9,197 nt of DNA, taken from a bacterium (GTDB lineage Bacteria; Bacillota_I; Bacilli_A; RF39; UBA660). The stretch lies in the NCBI GenBank assembly GCA_030539175.1, contig JAUNSN010000019.1, forward strand, positions 1-9,197. The letters are read 5' to 3'. Numbering within the stretch: position 1 is the stretch's first letter; the number at the start of each line of letters is the position of its first letter. Shown here in pieces: positions 1-9,197 of the stretch. Both the position numbers and the translations under genes were made by a program. The notes under the pieces were generated by a model. That model worked only from the letters and a program-made list of their open reading frames with translations, made no database searches and had not been told where the DNA came from.

Positions 1-91
1 TATTGTTGAATTAATCATATCACATAATTTATTATCAGACAAGTATATTAGAAAATTTTTGTAAGATATTTGAGTATTTGTTCTCCTTCAT

Positions 92-122
92 ACAAAAATA
101 AAAGCCTCAACAATCAAGGCTT
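92..122 (-). terminator. Rho-independent terminator downstream of tRNA-Pro
   Basis: On the minus strand the stem is AAGCCT (122-117) / AGGCTT (107-102) with a 9-nt loop, followed by TTATTTTTGT (101-92). It starts 12 nt after the tRNA 3' CCA. Confidence 0.6.
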
Positions 123-134
123 AACAAACATAAA

Positions 135-211
135 TGGTCGGGAAGACAGGATTTGAACCTGCAACCACCTGGTCCCAAACCAGGTGCTCTACCAAGTTGA
201 GCCACTTCCCG
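135..211 (-). tRNA. tRNA-Pro (anticodon UGG), 77 nt, CCA encoded
   Basis: The reverse complement folds by hand into a full cloverleaf: acceptor CGGGAAG/CTTCCCG, D arm GCTC-AACTTGGTA-GAGC, anticodon stem CCTGG/CCAGG with loop TTTGGGA (anticodon TGG, G37), variable TGGTT, T arm GCAGG-TTCAAAT-CCTGT, discriminator A, then CCA. Confidence 0.97.
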
Positions 212-231
212 ATGTCTTAAAAGACAAACAT

Positions 232-260
232 ATTATAACAAAAATAATTTACTTTATCAA
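232..260 (-). promoter_or_regulatory. Sigma-A type promoter for tRNA-Pro
   Basis: The minus strand reads TTGATA (260-255), a 17-nt spacer, then TGT-TATAAT (extended -10, hexamer 237-232). The -10 ends 20 nt upstream of the mature tRNA 5' end. Confidence 0.7.
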
Positions 261-414
261 CTTTATTTTGATATTTTTTATATAAAAATTTTTAAATATT
301 TTATTTTTATATTAAATACATAGTTTTATTTTGTTTTTATGACATATATTTTAAATATAACTTATGCTTTTACAAATATTAATTTTTAAAATTAAAGATT
401 TTTTACAAAAAGTA

Positions 415-423
415 TGTTAGAAT
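415..423 (+). promoter_or_regulatory. Possible extended -10 element upstream of the GGDEF locus
   Basis: TGTTAGAAT (TGnTAnAAT) lies ~30 nt upstream of the GTG at 454. No convincing -35 (AAGATT at 17-nt spacing). Confidence 0.3.
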
Positions 424-453
424 ACAATTAAATATGAAAGAGGATGAGTAATA

Positions 454-717
454 GTGAGTATAGTAAATTTAGAAATATATTCTATCTTAATAATTTGTAT
501 ATTAATTACTGATTATTATCTAAAACATAAGAATAAATTAAACATTAATAGTTATATATACATAATAATGGCCGGATGTATTGTTATATTATCTAGTATT
601 AATATATTCTTAGCAACCAATATTAATACTAATCTTAATGTCTATTATTTAGCCATAGTAGCCTATATTATTCTTATAATTCCTCCTATTTGTATATATC
701 TATATATATATCTATAA
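454..717 (+). CDS. N-terminal polytopic membrane segment, probably the frameshifted 5' part of the downstream GGDEF gene
   Basis: GTG start with AGAGGA (439-444) 9 nt upstream. It encodes 87 aa made of ~3 hydrophobic helices. It terminates inside a (TA)n tract and overlaps the next ORF by 28 nt in a different frame. Confidence 0.5.
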   Translation: MSIVNLEIYSILIICILITDYYLKHKNKLNINSYIYIIMAGCIVILSSINIFLATNINTNLNVYYLAIVAYIILIIPPICIYLYIYL

Positions 718-1541
718 ACTACTTTAATGAATATTTTAATATTAATAAAATTAATTCTAAACTTATAATATATATCATCACTTATATTCTTATTACTATT
801 TTTGTATTATTAATTCAACTTAAACAATTTTCTATAAAACCAGATCATATTCTTGATTTAGGTAAATATAGATATCTATTATTTATTACCTGTCTTCCTA
901 GTTTTTTAATAATAATAAGATTTATTAAAGAAAAAGACAAGAAAAAGGGAAGAAAAATAGATATACAATTATTAATAACTGTTTTAATACCTATTATAGG
1001 AAGTATTATTAGTATTCCAATTGAAAGTATTTCTCTCTTAATTCCTTCCTATACTTTATCATTAATATCAATATACATATATAGAAGTAATATTGAATTA
1101 TATAACGATCCATTAACAGGGATATATAATCGTAAAATACTTGAAGATACCAACTTTAAAATAAGTAAGAAAACAGCTATACTTTTCATAGATATAGATA
1201 AGTTTAAAAGTATTAATGATATTTATGGACATGATGTTGGTGATAAAGTATTAAAAGATGTAAGTTCAATTCTTAAGAATACTATTAGAGATAGTGATTA
1301 TCCAATTAGAATAGGTGGAGATGAATTTATAATTATTTGTTCTATTAAACAAAATAAAGATATTGCTCAATTAGTAAAAAGAATTAATAATAATATAGAA
1401 AAATATAACAAACAATCTCCTATACCTATATCCTTAAGTATAGGAGAGGGAATATATAATAAAAAAACAGAAAATATCAATGATTTTATTAAGAAAATAG
1501 ATGAAAAAATGTATGCTGAAAAAAAGAAAAAAATAAGATAA
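690..1541 (+). CDS. Membrane-anchored diguanylate cyclase (GGDEF domain)
   Basis: Hydrophobic N-terminal half, then canonical GGDEF-domain motifs: DPLTGIYNR, ILFIDIDKFKSINDIYGHDVGDKVL, an intact GGDEF (nt 1314-1328), and an RxxD I-site (RDSD) exactly 5 residues upstream of GGDEF. The annotated start is a TTG with no Shine-Dalgarno (pyrimidine-rich TCCTCC upstream), so the true start is probably the GTG at 454, reached via a frame change. Confidence 0.88.
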   Translation: MYISIYISINYFNEYFNINKINSKLIIYIITYILITIFVLLIQLKQFSIKPDHILDLGKYRYLLFITCLPSFLIIIRFIKEKDKKKGRKIDIQLLITVLIPIIGSIISIPIESISLLIPSYTLSLISIYIYRSNIELYNDPLTGIYNRKILEDTNFKISKKTAILFIDIDKFKSINDIYGHDVGDKVLKDVSSILKNTIRDSDYPIRIGGDEFIIICSIKQNKDIAQLVKRINNNIEKYNKQSPIPISLSIGEGIYNKKTENINDFIKKIDEKMYAEKKKKIR

Positions 1542-1557
1542 CAACTATCTTATTTTT
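1529..1557. terminator. Bidirectional AT-rich hairpin shared by the convergent GGDEF and aspS 3' ends
   Basis: Perfect 12-bp inverted repeat AAAAATAAGATA (1529-1540) / TATCTTATTTTT (1546-1557) with a 5-nt loop. It spans both stop codons. On the minus strand it is followed by TTTCTTTTTT. Only one G:C pair, so the stem is weak. Confidence 0.5.
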
Positions 1558-3281
1558 ATATGAACTTCTCGCAAACTTTTTTCATCTATTTCACTTGGAC
1601 AACCCATCATATAATCTTGTCCACTAACACTCATTGGGAAAGCTTGAACTTCTCGTAAGTTAGTCTCATCTTGTAATAACATGATAATTCTATCAATTCC
1701 TGGTGCCATACCTGCATGTGGAGGAACTCCATATTGAAAAGCTTCATACAAAGACTTAAATTTTGTCTTTAATACACTCTCATCATAACCTACTTTTGCA
1801 AAAGATTCTTTTAACAACTCAACATCATGATTTCTCACCGCACCACTTGACATTTCATGACCATTGCATACAAAATCAAATTGCATAGCAAGTATTTCAT
1901 CTAATTTATCATTATTAAAAGCTTTTTTACCTTCCTTTGGCATACTGAAAGGATTATGACAAAAGTCATATTTACCCTCATCTTCGTTATATTCAAATAA
2001 TGGTATATCATTAATAATACAAAATTCAAATTTATTATTATTTATTAACTCTAATTTTCTTCCTAATTCATCTCTTATTTTACCAGCTAATTTAGGTGCT
2101 TGTTCTTTATCTGCAATAAAGAACAAAACACTTCCAACTTTTAAATTAGCCTTATCTATTAAGCTTTTTCTTTCTTCATCAGTTAAAAATTTATCTATTG
2201 GACCATTAAAAACATAGTCATCCATTACTTTTATATAACCAATACCAGGCATACCTAAAGTTTTAGCATAATCAACTACTTCATTAAACCACGAATTAGA
2301 TTTACTAGCAATATCATCTACTTTAATACCTTTAACGACAATATCTCTAAAAGGTTTAAATTCACTATTAGCAAATTCATTAGTTAAATCTATTATCTCT
2401 AAAGGGTTTCTTAAATCAGGTTTATCAGTCCCATACTTATCCATTGCTTCTTTATAACTTATTCTTCTAAAGGGCTTAGGACTAACTTCTCTTGTCGAAA
2501 AGTTAGTAAATAAATCATAAAATATATCTTCTCCTATTTTATAAACATCTTCTTCTGTTACATAAGACATTTCAAAATCAAGTTGATAAAATTCTAATGT
2601 TCTATCCGCCCGACAATCTTCATCTCTAAAACAAGGAGCAATTTGATAATATCTATCAATTCCACCAACCATTAATAATTCTTTAAATATTTGAGGAGCT
2701 TGTGGTAAAGCATAAAACTTTCCTTTAAATTTTCGCGATGGAATAATAAAATCTCTTGCCCCCTCAGGAGAAGAAGCTGTAATAATAGGTGTTTGTACTT
2801 CTATAAAATCTAATTTATCCATCTTATTACGTAAAAATTGTAAAACTTTACTTCTTAAAATTATATTATCTTTTACTTTTTTATTCCTTAAATCTAAGTA
2901 ACGATAAGTAAGTCTAGTTTCTTCATTAACTTCTTTAGATGTAATTATTTCAAATGGTAAAGCATTCTTAGCTAAGCCTAATATTTGTAAGTTTTCAACA
3001 ACTAATTCAATTGTCCCAGTAGCCAATTTATCATTATAATCTTCTTCATTTCTTTTTCTTATTTTACCACTTACTGTTATACTAGATTCTCTTGTTAATC
3101 CATCAAAAACCTTATCATCATTACTTACCAGTTGCATACTTCCCTTATTATCACGTAAATCAACAAATATTACTCCACCATGATCACGAATATTTTCTAC
3201 AAATCCAGCTAATCTTATCTCTTTATCAACATAATCCTCTGTTATTTCATTACAATAATTACTGCGATATTTATTTATCAT
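1545..3281 (-). CDS. aspS: Aspartyl-tRNA synthetase, bacterial type (likely non-discriminating)
   Basis: 578 aa with class IIb signatures: FYALPQAPQIFKELLMVGG, QIAPCFRDEDCRADR (motif 2) and GMAPGIDRIIMLL (motif 3). It has the bacterial insertion domain. The ATG is preceded by AGGAGAG, which overlaps the gatB stop. It is the last gene of the gatCAB operon. Confidence 0.96.
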   Translation of the reverse strand: MINKYRSNYCNEITEDYVDKEIRLAGFVENIRDHGGVIFVDLRDNKGSMQLVSNDDKVFDGLTRESSITVSGKIRKRNEEDYNDKLATGTIELVVENLQILGLAKNALPFEIITSKEVNEETRLTYRYLDLRNKKVKDNIILRSKVLQFLRNKMDKLDFIEVQTPIITASSPEGARDFIIPSRKFKGKFYALPQAPQIFKELLMVGGIDRYYQIAPCFRDEDCRADRTLEFYQLDFEMSYVTEEDVYKIGEDIFYDLFTNFSTREVSPKPFRRISYKEAMDKYGTDKPDLRNPLEIIDLTNEFANSEFKPFRDIVVKGIKVDDIASKSNSWFNEVVDYAKTLGMPGIGYIKVMDDYVFNGPIDKFLTDEERKSLIDKANLKVGSVLFFIADKEQAPKLAGKIRDELGRKLELINNNKFEFCIINDIPLFEYNEDEGKYDFCHNPFSMPKEGKKAFNNDKLDEILAMQFDFVCNGHEMSSGAVRNHDVELLKESFAKVGYDESVLKTKFKSLYEAFQYGVPPHAGMAPGIDRIIMLLQDETNLREVQAFPMSVSGQDYMMGCPSEIDEKSLREVHIKIR

Positions 3282-3293
3282 ATCTTATCTCTC

Positions 3294-4715
3294 CTAACTT
3301 TTATCTAATTCTTCCTTAAACATCTGTGAAGCTTTACTTGGATTAGCCTGTCCTTTAGTTTTCTTCATCATTTGCCCAACAAAAAAGTCTAAAATATTTT
3401 TCCCACTCTTATATTTATCAACCATTGGTTTATTATCATTTATTATTTCAATAACCAAAGTTCTTAGTTCATCATCATCTGTTATTTGTCGCATATTAGA
3501 CTGTTTTATTATTTCAGTTGGAACTAACTCTTCAGTTAAAGCCTTATATAAAACTTCTTTACCTTGTTTTACTGATATAGTTGAATCTTCAACAGCTTTT
3601 ATTAAATCAACTAACATTTTTTCATTTACATAAATATCTCTAATTCCAAGTTCATATTTATTTAAATGTCCCATTATTACTCCATTTATCCAATTAGCCA
3701 CACTTTTAGGATTAATACCATAAGTTAAACATTTTTCAAAATATAAAGCATTTTCTTTTTCTTTAACCAATATATTAGCATCATATCTTGATAAACCATA
3801 TTCTTTCATATAAATATTAACTCTTTCAAACTGTAATTTAGGAATACTTGCTTTTATTTCATCTATCCAAGCCTTATCTAACTTTATTGCAGGTATATTA
3901 GGTTCAATAAAATACTTATAATCTACTGCTTCAACTTTATTTCTCATCGAAATAGTTGTTAAACTATCAACATCAAATCTTCTAGTTTCTTGAATAATTT
4001 TACCACCATTATCTAATATTTCTGTTTGTCTTTTTATTTCATACTCTAAAGCAAGTTTTACATTATTAAACGAATTAATATTCTTTATCTCAACCTTAGT
4101 ACCAAATTCTTTAGCATTTTCTTCCATTAAAGAAATATTAACATCACAACGCATTTGTCCTTTATCACTTCTTGCCTCACTTACTTCACAATATAAAAAT
4201 ACTTTTCTTAATGCTTCTAAAAATCCTAAAGCTTCATTTACACTATTCATTGTTGGTTCAGTAACAACTTCCATTAAAGGAATACCACTTCTATTATAAT
4301 CTATTAAAGAATAATTACCAAAATGATCTAAACTAGCAGTATCTTCTTCTAAATGAATATCATGAATATCTACCCTTTTATCAACGCCATCTACATTTAT
4401 CATTAAATAACCATTTATACCTACTGGTTTATGCATTTGTGTAATTTGATATCCTTTAGGTAAATCTGGATAAAAATAATTTTTTCTATCAAAAATTATT
4501 TTTTCTGGAACTTCACAATTAAGAGCTAAAGACATCATTAATGCTTTTCTTAATGCTTCTTTATTAATAACTGGCATAATACCAGGAAAGCCTAAATCAA
4601 CAACCGATAAATTACTATTAGGTTCAAGAGAATATTCATTTTTCCCTGTAGAAAAAACTTTAGATAAACTCCGAGCCTCACAATGAACTTCTAACCCAAT
4701 AACTATTTTTCGCAT
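3294..4715 (-). CDS. gatB: Asp-tRNA(Asn)/Glu-tRNA(Gln) amidotransferase subunit B
   Basis: 473 aa with a typical GatB N-terminus (VIGLEVHCE...), DYNRSGIPLMEVVTEP, and a C-terminal YqeY-like tail (GQMMKKTKGQANP). Its ATG overlaps the gatA TAA by 1 nt (TAATG). Confidence 0.97.
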   Translation of the reverse strand: MRKIVIGLEVHCEARSLSKVFSTGKNEYSLEPNSNLSVVDLGFPGIMPVINKEALRKALMMSLALNCEVPEKIIFDRKNYFYPDLPKGYQITQMHKPVGINGYLMINVDGVDKRVDIHDIHLEEDTASLDHFGNYSLIDYNRSGIPLMEVVTEPTMNSVNEALGFLEALRKVFLYCEVSEARSDKGQMRCDVNISLMEENAKEFGTKVEIKNINSFNNVKLALEYEIKRQTEILDNGGKIIQETRRFDVDSLTTISMRNKVEAVDYKYFIEPNIPAIKLDKAWIDEIKASIPKLQFERVNIYMKEYGLSRYDANILVKEKENALYFEKCLTYGINPKSVANWINGVIMGHLNKYELGIRDIYVNEKMLVDLIKAVEDSTISVKQGKEVLYKALTEELVPTEIIKQSNMRQITDDDELRTLVIEIINDNKPMVDKYKSGKNILDFFVGQMMKKTKGQANPSKASQMFKEELDKS

Positions 4716-6178
4716 TACTTATCACCTCTAGCAATCATATTCTTACATCCTAGTACATCTTCTATTTTTTTAGCCATATTTAAAACTACAACATCTTCCT
4801 TAACCCTTCCTGTTATATTTATCGCAACTGGCATATCATTTACCAAACCACTAGGAATAGTTATACTAGGAAAACCACCAAAATTACCGATTGCTAAATG
4901 ATTTTCTAACAATAAATATCTCTTTGATAATTTATCCAAATCATCACTTCCAGCTTTAGGTGCAATACCACCAGAAGCAGGCAATATTAAACCATCATAT
5001 TCTTTAAACAAATCATTAAATTTATCAACTATCATTCTTCTAATTCGACCGCTATTAAAGAATAATTTTTCTTGATTCTCTTTTTGTAATATATAACTAC
5101 CTAAAACAAATCTTCTTTTTATAAGTTCAGAAAATCCTTTAGTTCTAGCATCAAACATCATATCATTAACCTTCTTAGCATCTGATCTAGGTCCATATAA
5201 TATACCTGTTAAATTAGCATTATTGCTAGTTGCCTCAGCACAAGATATTGATATATAAGTCGGATATATAGCATTAAGTAATGTTTCATCAAATGAAACT
5301 TCCTCTACTACAAACCCCATTTCTTTACATTTATCAATAACACTATAAAAGTTATCCAATGTTTTATGTAATTCTTCATCATTAATATTTTCATATCTTT
5401 TTCTATCACATATTTCCTTAATATAAAATAATTTCCTTCCCCTAATATCATTATTAATAGAATCTAAATATACTACCGACTCATCTGGTAAACTAGTCAT
5501 ATCTTTCTCATCATGCCCTTTAATAGTATCCATCACAATTGCAACATCTTCAACACTTCTCGCAAAACATCCTAAATGATCTAAAGAAGAAGCAAAAGCA
5601 AATAAACCATAACGAGAAACGCGACCATAAGTTGGTTTATAACCAACTACTCCACCAAATGCGGCTGGTTTCCTAATTGAATCACCTGTATCTGAACCAA
5701 TTGCAAAAGGAACTATACCAAGCGCTACGGCAGCCGCACTTCCAGACGAAGAGCCACCTATTAAACATTCGCTATTCCAAGGATTCTTTACCATCCCAGT
5801 ATGACCAGTTGTTCCTGTTCCACCCATTGCTAATTCATCTAATACAGTTTTTCCCATTAATACTGCTCCACTATCTTTCAATTTCTTATAAATAGTCGCA
5901 TCATATACTGGTACATAATCACTTAATATATTAGATGATGCTGTAGTAAGTATTCCCTTAGTAGAAATATTATCTTTTAAAGCATAAGGGATACCATTTA
6001 ATAAACTATTAGGATTATTAACTTGTTCTTTAGTATTAATCAAAGTAACAAAACAATTATATTTATCTTGATATTTATTAGCTTTATTTAAACTATCTTT
6101 AAATAAAGAATCAGATGTCACTTCACCTAACTTTATTTTTTTTTGAATATCAATAATATTCATTTGAATATTTTCCAT
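4715..6178 (-). CDS. gatA: Asp-tRNA(Asn)/Glu-tRNA(Gln) amidotransferase subunit A (amidase family)
   Basis: 487 aa with the amidase signature GGSSSGSAAAVALG and GSDTGDSIRKPAAFGGVVGYKPTYGRVSRYG. The ATG directly abuts the gatC stop. Confidence 0.97.
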   Translation of the reverse strand: MENIQMNIIDIQKKIKLGEVTSDSLFKDSLNKANKYQDKYNCFVTLINTKEQVNNPNSLLNGIPYALKDNISTKGILTTASSNILSDYVPVYDATIYKKLKDSGAVLMGKTVLDELAMGGTGTTGHTGMVKNPWNSECLIGGSSSGSAAAVALGIVPFAIGSDTGDSIRKPAAFGGVVGYKPTYGRVSRYGLFAFASSLDHLGCFARSVEDVAIVMDTIKGHDEKDMTSLPDESVVYLDSINNDIRGRKLFYIKEICDRKRYENINDEELHKTLDNFYSVIDKCKEMGFVVEEVSFDETLLNAIYPTYISISCAEATSNNANLTGILYGPRSDAKKVNDMMFDARTKGFSELIKRRFVLGSYILQKENQEKLFFNSGRIRRMIVDKFNDLFKEYDGLILPASGGIAPKAGSDDLDKLSKRYLLLENHLAIGNFGGFPSITIPSGLVNDMPVAINITGRVKEDVVVLNMAKKIEDVLGCKNMIARGDK

Positions 6179-6469
6179 TTACTCCACCACCTTTGGAACT
6201 TTTACTTGATTATGTAATTTATCTTTAACATTAAATAAAGCTTCATCTACACTTATTACATCTTTAACTTCATCTTCCCTAAATTTTGCTTCTTCAAGTT
6301 CAAAAGGAAAAGTAAGAGGCTCAACATCTTTAATACCGTCAATAAGAGATATTAATTCCATTTGTTTTAATATAACATCAAACTCTCTTTGTAAGGTTTC
6401 ATATTCCTCATCCTTCATATCAAACATCAATTTAGATGCATAACTTTTTAATTTTTCTTTTTCTATCAT
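6179..6469 (-). CDS. gatC: Asp-tRNA(Asn)/Glu-tRNA(Gln) amidotransferase subunit C
   Basis: ~96 aa, GatC-like in size and position, immediately upstream of gatA. I moved the start to the internal ATG at 6469 (MIEKEKL...) because GGGAG (6480-6476) sits 6 nt upstream. The ATG at 6511 in the ORF track lies inside the predicted promoter. Confidence 0.88.
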   Translation of the reverse strand: MIEKEKLKSYASKLMFDMKDEEYETLQREFDVILKQMELISLIDGIKDVEPLTFPFELEEAKFREDEVKDVISVDEALFNVKDKLHNQVKVPKVVE

Positions 6470-6499
6470 AAGTATCTCCCTTTCAAATAAACTACATGT

Positions 6500-6529
6500 A
6501 TTATAACACAATATTGGTGTGTGTTACAA
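6500..6529 (-). promoter_or_regulatory. Promoter of gatCAB-aspS with an embedded dyad (copy 1 of the duplicated promoter)
   Basis: The minus strand reads TTGTAA (6529-6524), an 18-nt spacer, then TGT-TATAAT (extended -10, hexamer 6505-6500). A 7-bp inverted repeat TAACACA-N9-TGTGTTA (6504-6526) occupies the spacer and -10. The predicted 5' UTR to the gatC ATG is only ~25 nt. Confidence 0.6.
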
Positions 6530-6604
6530 CAAATAAAACCAATACATCCACTCTATTTTTATACCATTATTAATATTAATTATAAAAATTTTATTAATTA
6601 TACT
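6500..6604. repeat. 105-bp direct repeat, copy 1 (identical to 7943-8047)
   Basis: Base-by-base comparison shows 105/105 identity at an offset of 1443 bp. The flanks diverge immediately on both sides. Confidence 0.95.
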
Positions 6605-6645
6605 CCCGACTTCCGCACTTGAAATGTCATATTGTCATTTTTCCT

Positions 6646-6680
6646 AAAAAAAAGACCTAGAGCTTCTAAAGTTTTCTAGG
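6646..6680 (-). terminator. Rho-independent terminator after fic
   Basis: Minus strand: CCTAGA (6680-6675) ... TCTAGG (6661-6656), with an alternative tighter fold UUUAGA-AGC-UCUAGG. It is followed by TC + T8 (6655-6646) and lies 40 nt downstream of the fic stop. Confidence 0.5.
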
Positions 6681-6720
6681 CACATCTCAATATAGATTTT
6701 ATGATATTTGTTTAAATAAA

Positions 6721-7461
6721 TCAATCATTTTCTTCTAAAAAGTAATTAACTAGTTTTTCATAATTATCTTGACTATTAAGACAAGTATCTAATAAATATC
6801 CTTTTTCATTATTGATTTGATATTCTTTTATACCTCTTAAATAAAAGTCTTTGTTTCTTTCTTCTATATAAAATGGCATTATGTCATTATATAAACATTC
6901 TCTAAACATAATCATTCTACCAACTCTACCATTACCATCTTGAAATGGATGAATTCTTTCAAACCTAACGTGAAATTCAATTATGTCTTCAAGTGTTTTT
7001 TTAGAAATATCATTATACCAATTCATAAGTTTTAGCATTTCGTCAGACACTTTATCTGGTAAAGCAGTTGTAATATTGCCAACAAAGTTTTTTCTTTTTT
7101 TATATTCTCCTACATTAAACCATTCTTTTTCACTATCAGTTAATGTTCCATCCTTTAATATAAAATGGAATTTTTTAATCATATCTTCTGTTAATTTATC
7201 ATCTATTGTATCTAACATATACTTAAATAATGTAAAATGATTTTTAGTTTCTGTAGCATCTTTTAAAACAATCACTTTATCACTATTTGTCAAAATTGTT
7301 CCTGTGTCATATATACTTGCAGTTTCATCGGAAGTTATAGTAGATCCCTCCATATGATTAGTATTATAAGCAAATTCTAATTGTGTTTTATGATAAAGAT
7401 TACCAGATAAATTAATTCTTTTTTGTTCAATTAATGCTTTTTTAACATCACTTACTTTCAT
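6721..7461 (-). CDS. Fic-domain protein (class II, N-terminal autoinhibitory helix); putative AMP-transferase
   Basis: 246 aa. The canonical Fic motif HPFQDGNGRVGR (HxFx[D/E]GNGRxxR) is at nt 6916-6951. The inhibitory motif TNHMEG ([S/T]xxxE[G/N]) is at residues 34-39 (nt 7345-7362). Strong SD AGGAGG (7474-7469) lies 7 nt before the ATG. The stop is TGA. Confidence 0.93.
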   Translation of the reverse strand: MKVSDVKKALIEQKRINLSGNLYHKTQLEFAYNTNHMEGSTITSDETASIYDTGTILTNSDKVIVLKDATETKNHFTLFKYMLDTIDDKLTEDMIKKFHFILKDGTLTDSEKEWFNVGEYKKRKNFVGNITTALPDKVSDEMLKLMNWYNDISKKTLEDIIEFHVRFERIHPFQDGNGRVGRMIMFRECLYNDIMPFYIEERNKDFYLRGIKEYQINNEKGYLLDTCLNSQDNYEKLVNYFLEEND

Positions 7462-7523
7462 TATTATTCCTCCTTTTTAAATTTTTAGGGTTTGTTTTAA
7501 CAAGAGTTAATACTTCTTTATAT

Positions 7524-7546
7524 GTTTTATCAACAAGTGATAAAAC
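7524..7546 (-). other. 9-bp perfect hairpin overlapping the stop codon of the membrane ORF
   Basis: GTTTTATCA (7524-7532) / TGATAAAAC (7538-7546) with a 5-nt loop. No U-run follows on the minus strand, so it is not a canonical terminator. Confidence 0.4.
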
Positions 7547-7902
7547 TATATAATTCCATAATAGTGCAAAACAAATAAGCCAATTACAGTTTCAGTTCCA
7601 TACATAAAGTTTTTTATAAAACAATCAACAATTACTGTAAGACATATTATTAATCCATAAGCCACCAACATAAAGAATATTATTTCTGATGTCTTTCTTG
7701 TTAAATTATTACTATAACTCTTATCATTGTTTTTGTATCCAGTTTTTCCTTCACTAGACCATACATCTGGAAATTTTAAAAAGCTAAACAAGTTTAATCC
7801 TAACGAACACCAATATAAATACTTAACTCTTGAAATATCTAATAACGTCAAAACAAATGTTACTACTAATAATAAAATACTAAATATTTGCCATTTATTC
7901 AA
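7546..7902 (-). CDS. Hypothetical small integral membrane protein (~4 TM), no family recognised
   Basis: 118-aa ORF with four hydrophobic segments separated by a polar loop (SSEGKTGYKNNDKSYSNNLTRK). It is co-oriented with fic, 84 nt upstream of it, behind repeat copy 2. The start as drawn is a TTG with a poor SD. See the finding on the in-frame TGA at 7903-7905. Confidence 0.55.
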   Translation of the reverse strand: MNKWQIFSILLLVVTFVLTLLDISRVKYLYWCSLGLNLFSFLKFPDVWSSEGKTGYKNNDKSYSNNLTRKTSEIIFFMLVAYGLIICLTVIVDCFIKNFMYGTETVIGLFVLHYYGII

Positions 7903-7942
7903 TCACTTAAACTTATTCATCACCCATAAACTCCTTGTGACA

Positions 7943-7972
7943 ATTATAACACAATATTGGTGTGTGTTACAA
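7943..7972 (-). promoter_or_regulatory. Copy 2 of the duplicated promoter and dyad, driving the membrane-ORF/fic module
   Basis: Sequence identical to 6500-6529: TTGTAA (7972-7967), 18 nt, TGT-TATAAT (7948-7943), with dyad TAACACA-N9-TGTGTTA. AAGGAG (7936-7931) follows 6 nt downstream. Confidence 0.6.
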
Positions 7973-8047
7973 CAAATAAAACCAATACATCCACTCTATT
8001 TTTATACCATTATTAATATTAATTATAAAAATTTTATTAATTATACT
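7943..8047. repeat. 105-bp direct repeat, copy 2 (identical to 6500-6604)
   Basis: 105/105 identity to copy 1 at an offset of 1443 bp. Confidence 0.95.
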
Positions 8048-8071
8048 AAAATTAATTTATAACATCTTGTT

Positions 8072-8127
8072 ATAAAAGAAAAAACTAAAATTTTTATCCA
8101 AAAACTTTTTTTGGTAAAATTTTAGTT
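8072..8127 (-). terminator. Long AT-rich hairpin with U-run; likely terminator of the gpmI transcript
   Basis: The outer 11-bp stem AACTAAAATTT (8083-8093) / AAATTTTAGTT (8117-8127) encloses an inner 7-bp stem CCAAAAA (8098-8104) / TTTTTGG (8108-8114). On the minus strand it is followed by TTTTTTCTTTT (8082-8072). Confidence 0.5.
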
Positions 8128-8149
8128 ACCATTACCTCTTTTCTTCACT

Positions 8150-8178
8150 TTGACACCCTTTTTTTCTCATGATAGAAT
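8150..8178 (+). promoter_or_regulatory. Near-consensus orphan sigma-A promoter on the plus strand
   Basis: TTGACA (8150-8155), an exact 17-nt spacer, then TGA-TAGAAT (TG at 8170-8171, hexamer 8173-8178). This is the closest match to consensus in the window. No ORF lies downstream. Confidence 0.55.
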
Positions 8179-8184
8179 GTCATC

Positions 8185-8350
8185 AGAAAGGAAAAATTCC
8201 TTTCGTATAAAAAGACTTACAAAAATCATTAACTACCACACCCTTAAAAAAGAAAAAAGGGGACATTTAAATTTGTAATTAGGATACCTCCACGTTTTGT
8301 CCTAAATCACTTACTTATACTCCATATCATTCGTAAGTCTTTTTATTTAA
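8185..8350 (+). ncRNA. Candidate small or antisense RNA (hypothetical)
   Basis: It lies downstream of the 8150-8178 promoter and has no ATG or GTG on the plus strand in the interval. Structure:
- 5' hairpin GAAAGGAA-AAA-TTCCTTTC (8186-8204);
- a 14-bp long-range stem ATAAAAAGACTTAC (8207-8220) / GTAAGTCTTTTTAT (8333-8346) that runs into a T-run;
- an internal hairpin CCCTT/AAGGG (8241-8261);
- an internal hairpin TTAGGA/TCCTAA (8279-8305) whose loop carries CCTCC. Confidence 0.3.
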
Positions 8351-9197
8351 TTAAACTTTCTCCAGTCATATCGACTGGTTTTTCAATATTTAATATATCC
8401 AATATAGTCGGAGCAATATCAGCTAATCCACCATCTTTCAAGGTAACATTTTCGTTACATAAAACAAAGTTTACTTTATTCGTAGTATGCGTTGTAACAA
8501 TATTATTATCATCATCTATCATATATTCACAATTACCATGATCAGCTGTAATAATTAAAATTCCATCTTTCTCTTTAACTTTATCATATAATTTACCTAC
8601 TGCATTATCTACAGCCTCAACAGCTTGTACGGCCGCATCCATATTACCAGTATGTCCGACCATATCACCATTAGCATAATTAACAATAACCACATCATAT
8701 ATATTTTCATCTAACTTAGCAAGTAATTTCTCATTAACTTCATTTATACTCATCTCAGGTTTTAAATCATAAGTTGCCACTTTAGGAGAGGCGACTAAAA
8801 TATTATCACTATTCTTAAGTTTTAGGTCTCTACCTCCATCAAAGAAATAAGTAACATGATTATACTTTTCAGTTTCAGCAATTCTCAGTTGTTTTAAATT
8901 ATTTCTTTCTAACACTTCACCTAAAGTGTTACTAATATGTAAATCATCTATTAAATAAGGATATTTTATACTATCTCTTATTTTCATTAAAGTTATAACA
9001 TCATAACCATCCTTATAAAACTTACCTATTAATTCAACCGCCCTATCAGGACGAAAATTCATCCAAATTATTAAATCATCTTTTTCTATTTTAGAATTTT
9101 TAACAAACATAGTTGGTTCTAAAAATTCATCATATATCTTATTTTTATAACTATCATTAATAAATTTCTCAACTTTTTTTGAACATGTCATTGTCCC
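8343..9197 (-). CDS. gpmI: 2,3-bisphosphoglycerate-independent phosphoglycerate mutase, C-terminal part (5' end outside the window)
   Basis: iPGM hallmarks are present: NYANGDMVGHTGN and ITADHGNCE (metal and phosphotransferase domain). The reading frame stays open upstream of the ATG at 9191 to the window edge, and full-length iPGM is ~510 aa, so this is a partial gene. The stop is TAA at 8343-8345. Confidence 0.94.
   Translation of the reverse strand, partial: GTMTCSKKVEKFINDSYKNKIYDEFLEPTMFVKNSKIEKDDLIIWMNFRPDRAVELIGKFYKDGYDVITLMKIRDSIKYPYLIDDLHISNTLGEVLERNNLKQLRIAETEKYNHVTYFFDGGRDLKLKNSDNILVASPKVATYDLKPEMSINEVNEKLLAKLDENIYDVVIVNYANGDMVGHTGNMDAAVQAVEAVDNAVGKLYDKVKEKDGILIITADHGNCEYMIDDDNNIVTTHTTNKVNFVLCNENVTLKDGGLADIAPTILDILNIEKPVDMTGESLIK

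Follow-up and report, generated by a model that had tools for sequence, protein, structure and literature searches.

A perfect 105-bp direct repeat around a fic fragment upstream of gatCAB-aspS is probably a duplicated promoter-bearing segment

How does a fragment of a mobile-element operon come to lie directly ahead of an essential housekeeping operon, between two perfect copies of the same sequence? The question is raised by a 9,197-nt stretch of DNA, hereafter the window (contig JAUNSN010000019.1 of assembly GCA_030539175.1, positions 1 to 9,197), from a rare, very AT-rich metagenome-assembled genome (MAG) of the gut Bacilli. Here a 105-bp direct repeat brackets a membrane gene and a fic gene upstream of the gatCAB-aspS operon. 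We conclude that the repeat is probably a duplicated promoter-bearing segment around a captured fic fragment, i.e. a real but fairly ordinary rearrangement that has no mobility of its own.

RESULTS

The repeat pair is perfect and stands alone in the window

As a first-pass annotation of the window had proposed, the direct repeat is 105 bp long and perfect: a repeat search and direct string comparison find positions 6500-6604 and 7943-8047 the same at 105 of 105 bases, with the copies starting 1443 bp apart and enclosing 1338 bp. This pair is the single outstanding repeat of the window, and its 3'-terminal 30-mer occurs at just these two window sites with up to three mismatches allowed (0 expected from 200 shuffles). 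The same annotation had both flanks diverging immediately. The flanks are indeed unrelated, save for a patch downstream on the minus strand, ACAAGGAGTTTAT versus ACATGTAGTTTAT, which agrees at 11 of 13 positions after a 4-nt offset and may be chance. None of 87 related fic loci, several of which bear an integrase, has the 105-mer as a unit, and exact searches of JGI metagenome contigs and IMG/VR with its terminal 30-mer gave no match. No Rfam family is matched by the repeat, and as single-stranded DNA neither strand folds better than shuffled sequence (z = -0.4 and -0.8).

All genes in the repeat region lie on the minus strand. Along that strand, from 5' to 3', come the C-terminal part of gpmI (ending at 8343), a 295-nt intergenic region, copy 2 of the repeat, the membrane open reading frame (ORF), fic, a hairpin followed by eight T residues (hairpin-T8), copy 1 and gatC-gatA-gatB-aspS:

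8048-8342, no strand assigned: intergenic region from the gpmI stop to copy 2; outer flank, structured, with no match in any fetched locus
7943-8047, minus strand: repeat copy 2, gpmI-proximal; promoter-like segment facing the membrane pseudogene and fic
7462-7942, minus strand: upstream part of the insert; 6 nt unexplained (7942-7937), homology to an xre tail plus ribosome-binding site, decayed membrane gene
6721-7461, minus strand: fic, 246 aa, intact; predicted class II Fic from motifs and profile matches
6605-6720, minus strand: downstream part of the insert; about 75 nt missing from donor-type loci, hairpin-T8, donor motif, 18 GC-rich nt
6500-6604, minus strand: repeat copy 1, gatC-proximal; identical 105 nt, with the -10 hexamer ending at 6500
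1545-6469, minus strand: gatCAB-aspS operon; gatC 6179-6469, gatA 4715-6178, gatB 3294-4715, aspS 1545-3281

Both copies end in a promoter-like element

On the coding strand the repeat reads AGTATAATTAAT...TTGTTGTAACACACACCAATATTGTGTTATAAT, and its 5' two-thirds are nearly pure A+T. The last nine bases form an extended -10 element, TGtTATAAT, with the repeat stopping at the final T of the -10 hexamer. In both copies TTGTAA, an 18-nt spacer and TATAAT with its TG match the consensus at 10 of 12 positions; in copy 2 the TTGTAA lies at 7972-7967 and the TGtTATAAT at 7951-7943. The spacer is filled by an inverted repeat, TAACAC-N11-GTGTTA. From the end of the -10 hexamer of copy 1 it is 30 nt to the gatC ATG at 6469, with a GGGAG Shine-Dalgarno sequence in between, and from copy 2 it is 19 nt to the original GTG start of the membrane gene. 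The ATG at 6469, which yields the 96-aa GatC product on record, replaces the TTG at 6511 that had been suggested as the gatC start and would have overlapped the repeat. A promoter had already been suggested for the repeat, and a promoter-like element, correctly spaced for the unit downstream, is what we find in each copy. We infer that the repeat would serve as a sigma-70-type extended -10 promoter for both downstream units. A consensus promoter scan tempers this call, as it returns 20 sites in this AT-rich region versus 19.4 expected from shuffles; because the count does not exceed that of shuffled sequence, the call rests on the quality of the match, its position and the extended -10 element.

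The element may have a family resemblance. The last ~17 nt of the repeat, CAATATTGTGTTATAAT, match a promoter signature of fic modules: the pattern CAATA(N1-4)TGTTATAAT occurs 12 times in the 1.53 Mb of DNA fetched for comparison (fetched loci and contigs carry L numbers), and all these sites precede fic or xre-membrane-fic on the same strand save for the gatC copy (copy 1 of the window and contig L001). Locus L075 has two collinear blocks in common with the repeat. Set against a shared origin, the likeness to fic-module promoters covers just ~19 nt and the pattern was picked after seeing the data; a fic-promoter profile matches both copies best in the window at E values of only 0.07 and 0.24 (nhmmer); and TRTGnTATAAT is a general form of strong Gram-positive promoters. 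Local alignments of the whole repeat to the regulatory regions of xre operons are no better than those of shuffles, and shared 9-mers are suggestive for L075 and L033 only (p ~0.01 before multiple testing). The odds that the core promoter arrived with the fic module, as opposed to being native and merely similar, are in our judgement roughly even. Had it come with the module, a promoter minus its Xre repressor was copied ahead of gatCAB-aspS.

The insert is a truncated piece of an xre-membrane-fic operon

The fic product is a predicted class II Fic protein. It matches Pfam PF02661 (E = 4e-17); its active-site motif, HPFQDGNGRVGR, fits HxFx(D/E)GNGRxxR and aligns to HPFQDGNGRIGR of CdFic; and its N-terminal inhibitory motif, T34-N-H-M-E38-G39, fits (S/T)xxxE(G/N) and aligns with SNKIEG of CdFic. 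Class II Fic proteins, as Engel et al. reportedly set out in 2012, carry the inhibitory (S/T)xxxE(G/N) N-terminal of the Fic core in one chain. The closest solved relative is Clostridium difficile CdFic itself (PDB 4x2c/4x2e, E = 1e-27). Among the PADLOC profiles, that of the single-gene defence candidate PDC-S04 matches the full-length protein (E = 1e-99) and that of SoFic gives a weaker match (E = 1e-24), and SoFic-type class II fic genes have been reported as standalone anti-phage genes (PMC11514479). Motifs and profile matches make the window protein a predicted class II Fic and a defence candidate. The family is very common, with >7900 homologues, the best 120 of which are 81-100% identical. 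The gene is also found alone in ordinary chromosomal settings, namely between spoIIR and prmC in L002 and as a broken gene in L075. There are no Fic relatives in IMG/VR, and a phage origin of the gene was rejected on that ground. Exact-protein look-ups for Fic and the membrane ORF returned no match.

The source of the insert can be recognised from related loci. Window positions 7936-6723 are 81% identical at the nucleotide level to L022, where an xre gene (HTH_3), a 172-aa membrane gene and fic follow one another with overlapping ends next to an AAA_25 gene. The homology begins 7 nt past the repeat at AAGGAGTTTATGGG, which in L022 comprises the last xre codons (~10 nt) and the ribosome-binding site of the membrane gene; because it begins inside the xre tail, the fragment was cut from mid-operon. 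In L003-L006 a fic gene of 87% protein (83% DNA) identity stands in the layout xre / ~171-aa ORF / fic, with a middle ORF that has no significant similarity to the membrane gene (E = 2.8), and L003 also bears a tyrosine integrase, a Mob_Pre relaxase, an AAA_25 protein and FtsK. The membrane-fic pairing recurs in L024, L025 and L029. By this homology the insert is a truncated piece of an xre-membrane-fic operon from integrative mobilizable/conjugative elements of gut Bacilli. Comparing the intergenic and fic-downstream regions with xre, an 83-aa ORF, AAA_25 and HTH sequences gave no credible remnant of any of these; the best matches lay inside the repeat.

We also observed that the 12-mer GGAGTTTATGGG or a close variant is found at the xre tail before the membrane gene and just 3' of fic in donor-type elements (L022 1424 and 2665; L003 6761; window 7932 and 6493), and that AGTTTAT follows both repeat copies in the window. 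The 12-mer may be a short direct repeat around the donor membrane-fic pair, or chance.

The membrane gene, previously taken to be intact, has decayed. The 118-aa ORF at 7546-7902, which has no significant Pfam family, is what is left of a gene whose intact homologue, P0241, is 172 aa long and begins MKMNKFKRLNK. In the window the original 5' end reads GTG (7923) ATG AAT AAG TTT AAG TGA TTG, where the TGA at 7905-7903 stands for an AGA (Arg) of the homologue and the TTG at 7902 is the restart. The gene has also lost 3 nt relative to the homologue, and loss of a further 1 nt from the T-run at 7571-7568 leaves the last ~50 codons out of frame. Judged by its nonsense and frameshift lesions relative to P0241, the gene is a pseudogene.

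Downstream of fic, a hairpin, CCTAGA...TCTAGG (6680-6656), can be read from the sequence and is followed by T8 (6653-6646); we take it to be a putative terminator (6680-6646). The donor-conserved motif AAAAATGACAATATGACATT lies at 6642-6623; the motif AAAAATGACAnnATGACA, which the window has 3' of fic in common with L003 and L022, is in those two loci one arm of a long hairpin. Between this donor motif and copy 1 lie 18 nt, TCAAGTGCGGAAGTCGGG (6622-6605), with 61% G+C in a region of 25% G+C. On the plus strand these 18 nt read CCCGACTTCCGCA, which by inspection resembles the end of a tRNA on its 3' side, with T-stem and acceptor strand. A comparison with 103 loci gave neither a tRNA nor any other sequence that matches, and a tRNA or attachment-site (att) remnant was rejected as their origin.

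The two ends of the insert, TGTCACAAGG... and ...GGAAGTCGGG, do not form an inverted pair, and none at these positions is among the 25 longest of 214 inverted repeats. Between the repeats the membrane ORF and Fic are the sole ORFs, with no transposase or recombinase, and the window as a whole has no integrase. ORF and Pfam content thereby agree with the original description of an accessory fic module that encodes no recombinase. The accompanying description of a self-contained unit holds only in part: the membrane ORF, Fic and hairpin-T8 do lie inside, whereas the upstream end falls mid-operon, in the xre tail, and the membrane gene is a pseudogene. Having no recombinase, terminal inverted repeats or att-like ends, the module is predicted not to be self-mobile.

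The gatCAB-aspS operon has lost the T-box leader of its relatives

In all six gatCAB-aspS relatives fetched (L008, L010, L014, L015, L019 and L020) a T-box leader lies directly upstream of gatC, scoring 118-142 bits with Rfam RF00230 (gathering threshold 93). Rfam covariance models find no T-box in the window at E <= 1. A degenerate T-box within 8048-8342 (AAGGGTGTGGTAG) was considered and rejected, as Rfam matches none there. By these covariance-model searches, the leader used by the relatives is lost in this lineage.

The known relatives are distant. The nearest other GatC among 5.8 billion proteins is 73% identical and has different neighbours, and the closest relatives in a GatA scan of GTDB genomes are 62-71% identical; in none of the relatives from the two scans is gatC preceded by gpmI, the membrane gene or fic. 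An exact look-up of GatC returned one 2-kb Logan contig only.

A foreign fragment would have lodged between two promoter copies

In the reading that we favour, a foreign 1338-bp fragment with the two distal genes of an xre-membrane-fic operon would have lodged between the promoter copies, with xre lost on the way. The fragment would now abut the -10 box of copy 2, from which fic would be read through the decaying membrane gene as far as hairpin-T8. Copy 1 would restart transcription 30 nt ahead of gatC and so allow gatCAB-aspS to be expressed despite the terminator-carrying insert; with the T-box gone, the duplicated promoter would be the only recognisable control element of the operon. Duplication in situ, during illegitimate insertion or by a double template switch, is the route we prefer, and selection would have kept just those products that left the essential operon a promoter. 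With AG-TATAAT at its start and GT-TATAAT at its end, the segment may show microhomology through which the joints were made.

The outer flanks, i.e. the intergenic region before copy 2 and the gatC leader after copy 1, look native and the inner flanks look foreign, so that the ancestor would have read intergenic region-repeat-gatC leader. The 30-nt gatC leader weakly resembles the U-tract and ribosome-binding site after the T-box terminator of L010, as well as the TATAATACAT leader of L009/L017 (z = 3.5), and the upstream flank of copy 2 weakly continues a TATAA(A)TTAAT periodicity. These faint likenesses are in keeping with native outer and foreign inner flanks; they do not tell which copy came first.

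A perfect identity of 105 bp suffices for RecA-dependent recombination, so that the 1443-bp unit can be expected to undergo precise loss or tandem amplification. Such an event would leave one promoter copy on gatCAB-aspS, as the first-pass annotation had argued from the sequence. We infer that the module would be lost or amplified only through host homologous recombination between the copies.

Several observations count against this account of the locus. The 18 nt at the downstream end of the insert and the 6 nt at its upstream end are unexplained. A consensus scan missed the hairpin downstream of fic, and the minimum-free-energy fold pairs the stretch otherwise and is no better than those of shuffles (z = +0.64). 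The protein and genome comparisons reach other species only. Linkage of the two copies on one molecule rests on the deposited MAG contig, and the Logan graph breaks at the repeat.

Alternative origins

Two origins had been suggested at the outset. Promoter duplication with gene capture fits the locus better; the mid-operon border speaks against a site-specific or Campbell-type insertion of a circular cassette, as does the failure to find the repeat in the 87 fic loci, JGI or IMG/VR. In the Campbell-type version, a circle carrying the 105 bp and the membrane-fic fragment joined a chromosomal copy by one homologous crossover. The structure is formally the product of a single crossover, its copies are perfect and bound the unit exactly, and an empty site together with a 1443-bp circle would have the same four junctions. 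What makes us regard this as rather unlikely is that the 105 bp, promoter DNA of this lineage, would have to be on the circular donor beforehand, so that their origin is left to be explained one step earlier; moreover, the sequence turned up in no plasmid, phage or element, and the 1443-bp unit has no replication or recombination gene.

Alternatively, an element could have integrated at the gatC promoter and then lost its integrase and most of its genes. The copies would then be attL and attR, at which a related element could still excise the remnant. A cis-mobilizable element (CIME) is just this: an element that has lost its integration and transfer genes and kept attL and attR (PMC6323972). 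Direct repeats around cargo that derives from a mobile element and has no recombinase are as expected of a CIME, and the closest fic modules do lie in elements with a tyrosine integrase and relaxase. On inspection of the plus strand, the stretch TCAAGTGCGGAAGTCGGG beside copy 1 even resembles the terminal (3') acceptor/T-arm part of a tRNA, which is common in att sites; no tRNA with such an end was found. Donor homology starts 0-6 nt from the repeat and in mid-operon, in the xre tail, which needs two deletions ending exactly at the att borders. The 105-mer is missing from the 87 related fic loci, integrase-bearing ones included, as is its terminal 30-mer from IMG/VR and JGI contigs, and 105 bp of identity in non-conserved AT-rich promoter DNA would be an unlikely integrase target. 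We judge this origin decidedly unlikely.

The arrangement could also be old, with gene conversion, or selection on two copies of one promoter, preserving the identity of the repeats. The three lesions of the membrane gene relative to its homologue suggest a period of residence, unless they are older than the transfer, and the fic with duplicated flanks in L037 (below) persisted long enough for its repeat to diverge (130 nt, 81%). There is no direct evidence for conversion, and the simplest reading of 0 differences in 105 nt of mostly unconstrained AT-rich DNA beside unrelated flanks is a recent event; great age of the pair strikes us as distinctly improbable.

Could the second copy have been made by the assembler? 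The true chromosome would then run gpmI-repeat-gatC, and a separate molecule or strain variant with the 105-mer would have been threaded into it. The relevant evidence comes from two Logan contigs of run SRR24915786, L001 and L021, both 100% identical to the window: L001 spans 6529 down into gatB and L021 spans 7972 down to 6784. Both open with the same 30-mer, 30 nt before the downstream end of the repeat, and then split, one into gatC and the other into the membrane ORF. Logan assemblies are built with k = 31, and the contigs start 30 nt inside the repeat because a k-1 overlap stays where a k = 31 de Bruijn graph branches. Since L001 and L021 start inside the repeat and run into different flanks, both downstream junctions exist in the reads. 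What the two contigs document is these junctions and not linkage. In the 24,114-bp MAG contig, Fic (MDO5569238.1) and GatC (MDO5569237.1) carry consecutive accessions. An artefact would account for the independent Logan assembly being unresolved at the repeat, with both contigs stopping 30 nt inside it, and the organism is represented by this one 24-kb contig and one sequencing run. Yet assemblers do not usually have a k or k-1 overlap of 105 nt, and ordinary reads of 150 nt are longer than this, so that spanning reads should have settled the path, and the sole alternative topology with these junctions is an empty site plus a gene-poor 1443-bp circle. We thus consider an assembly artefact unlikely, and highly so.

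A transposon or insertion-sequence target-site duplication is ruled out by the 105-bp size (transposases are known to duplicate 2-14 bp), the lack of a transposase and the lack of terminal inverted repeats, and an integron cassette by the lack of an attC-like fold of the repeat (z = -0.4 and -0.8) and of an integron integrase.

Flanking duplications at other fic loci

The duplicated promoter segment that we favour for the window has a counterpart in L037. There a 130-nt direct repeat (3802-3928 and 4878-5004; 81% identity between copies) encloses a fic gene 84% identical to that of the window, and after the downstream copy come a T-box leader and gltX; L037 is an older, diverged parallel of the window arrangement. 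In L085, L087, L088 and L089 a 31-nt terminator-like sequence stands at the end of the upstream gene and again at the end of fic, with 94-97% identity. It includes the last codons and the stop, and brackets an 805-bp promoter-fic unit (L088 3921-3951 and 4726-4756).

Tight flanking repeats are found at 5 of 74 fic genes, compared with 5 of 393 other ORFs in the fetched loci. The enrichment is not significant after related loci are collapsed (p = 0.07-0.2), and we rejected flanking duplication as a fic-specific trait. A link between fic and aminoacyl-tRNA genes was likewise rejected, since no other fic locus adjoins gat, aspS or gltX. The three lineages seen here (the window, L037 and L085-L089) might hint that fic modules enter chromosomes by a recurrent mechanism aimed at promoters or terminators, with 30-130 bp of this DNA duplicated on the way; in our view this is very doubtful. 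In a milder version, a mobile-element promoter freed of its Xre repressor may have been copied to replace T-box control of gatCAB-aspS.

Other features of the window and the fetched loci

The best promoter match of the region lies not in the repeat but between it and gpmI, on the plus strand at 8150-8178, pointing to gpmI (TTGACA, 17-nt spacer, TAGAAT with TG; 11 of 12 positions). The match and the ~160 nt that follow it span 8150-8345; these ~160 nt have a long closing helix, AAAAAGACUUAC / GUAAGUCUUUUU, a U-run end and a z-score of -4.7 versus shuffles, and belong to no Rfam family. This structured stretch could be a small RNA convergent with gpmI or a bidirectional gpmI terminator.

On the plus strand, an 87-aa hydrophobic ORF (454-717) overlaps in a different frame with one of 283 aa (690-1541) that has a hydrophobic N-terminus and a GGDEF domain; the pair (454-1541) looks like one membrane diguanylate cyclase gene, frameshifted or mis-started. 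A tRNA-Pro (UGG) gene lies on the minus strand at 135-211, downstream of aspS and the GGDEF gene, and is unrelated to the repeat. Among the fetched loci, L012 encodes an ornate large extremophilic (OLE) RNA at 8873-9457, immediately after gatB (360 bits). Its Muribaculaceae label is probably wrong, as its gat genes group with those of the Bacilli relatives.

DISCUSSION

This type of rearrangement is already known, and the finding opens no long-standing question. It does offer a clean, datable example of a mobile-element fragment wedged between a promoter and an essential operon, where the cell survives since the promoter was duplicated. What modestly adds to its interest is that T-box control has gone and that a promoter of mobile-element origin may have been put to new use. 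Should the promoter reading be right, an amino-acid-sensing T-box riboswitch has been replaced by a seemingly simple promoter ahead of genes that produce Asn-tRNA and Gln-tRNA and that charge tRNA-Asp. The Fic defence candidate and these housekeeping genes would then be expressed from the same promoter sequence. The structure also predicts a specific instability, namely precise loss or amplification of 1443 bp.

Like class II Fic proteins such as CdFic and the single-gene defence candidates PDC-S04 and SoFic, the window Fic has a Fic motif, here HPFQDGNGRVGR, and an N-terminal (S/T)xxxE(G/N). It differs from them in that its gene is separated from its xre partner and stands behind a duplicated promoter. 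Transposons and insertion sequences, too, leave a duplicated target around inserted DNA, but the duplication in the window is far longer. With CIMEs the locus has in common mobile-element cargo between direct repeats and the absence of integrase and transfer genes of its own; in contrast to CIMEs, one border of the insert cuts the donor operon, the repeat was found in no related element, and it ends exactly at a -10 box. Campbell-type structures and amplifiable units have the same repeat-insert-repeat geometry, for which RecA-dependent loss or tandem amplification is expected, although for the window no circular donor with the repeat is known. Finally, the operon itself compares with the T-box-regulated gatCAB-aspS operons of related gut Bacilli. 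The order gatC-gatA-gatB-aspS is the same, whereas in the window the place of the T-box is taken by a 30-nt untranslated leader behind what is probably a duplicated promoter.

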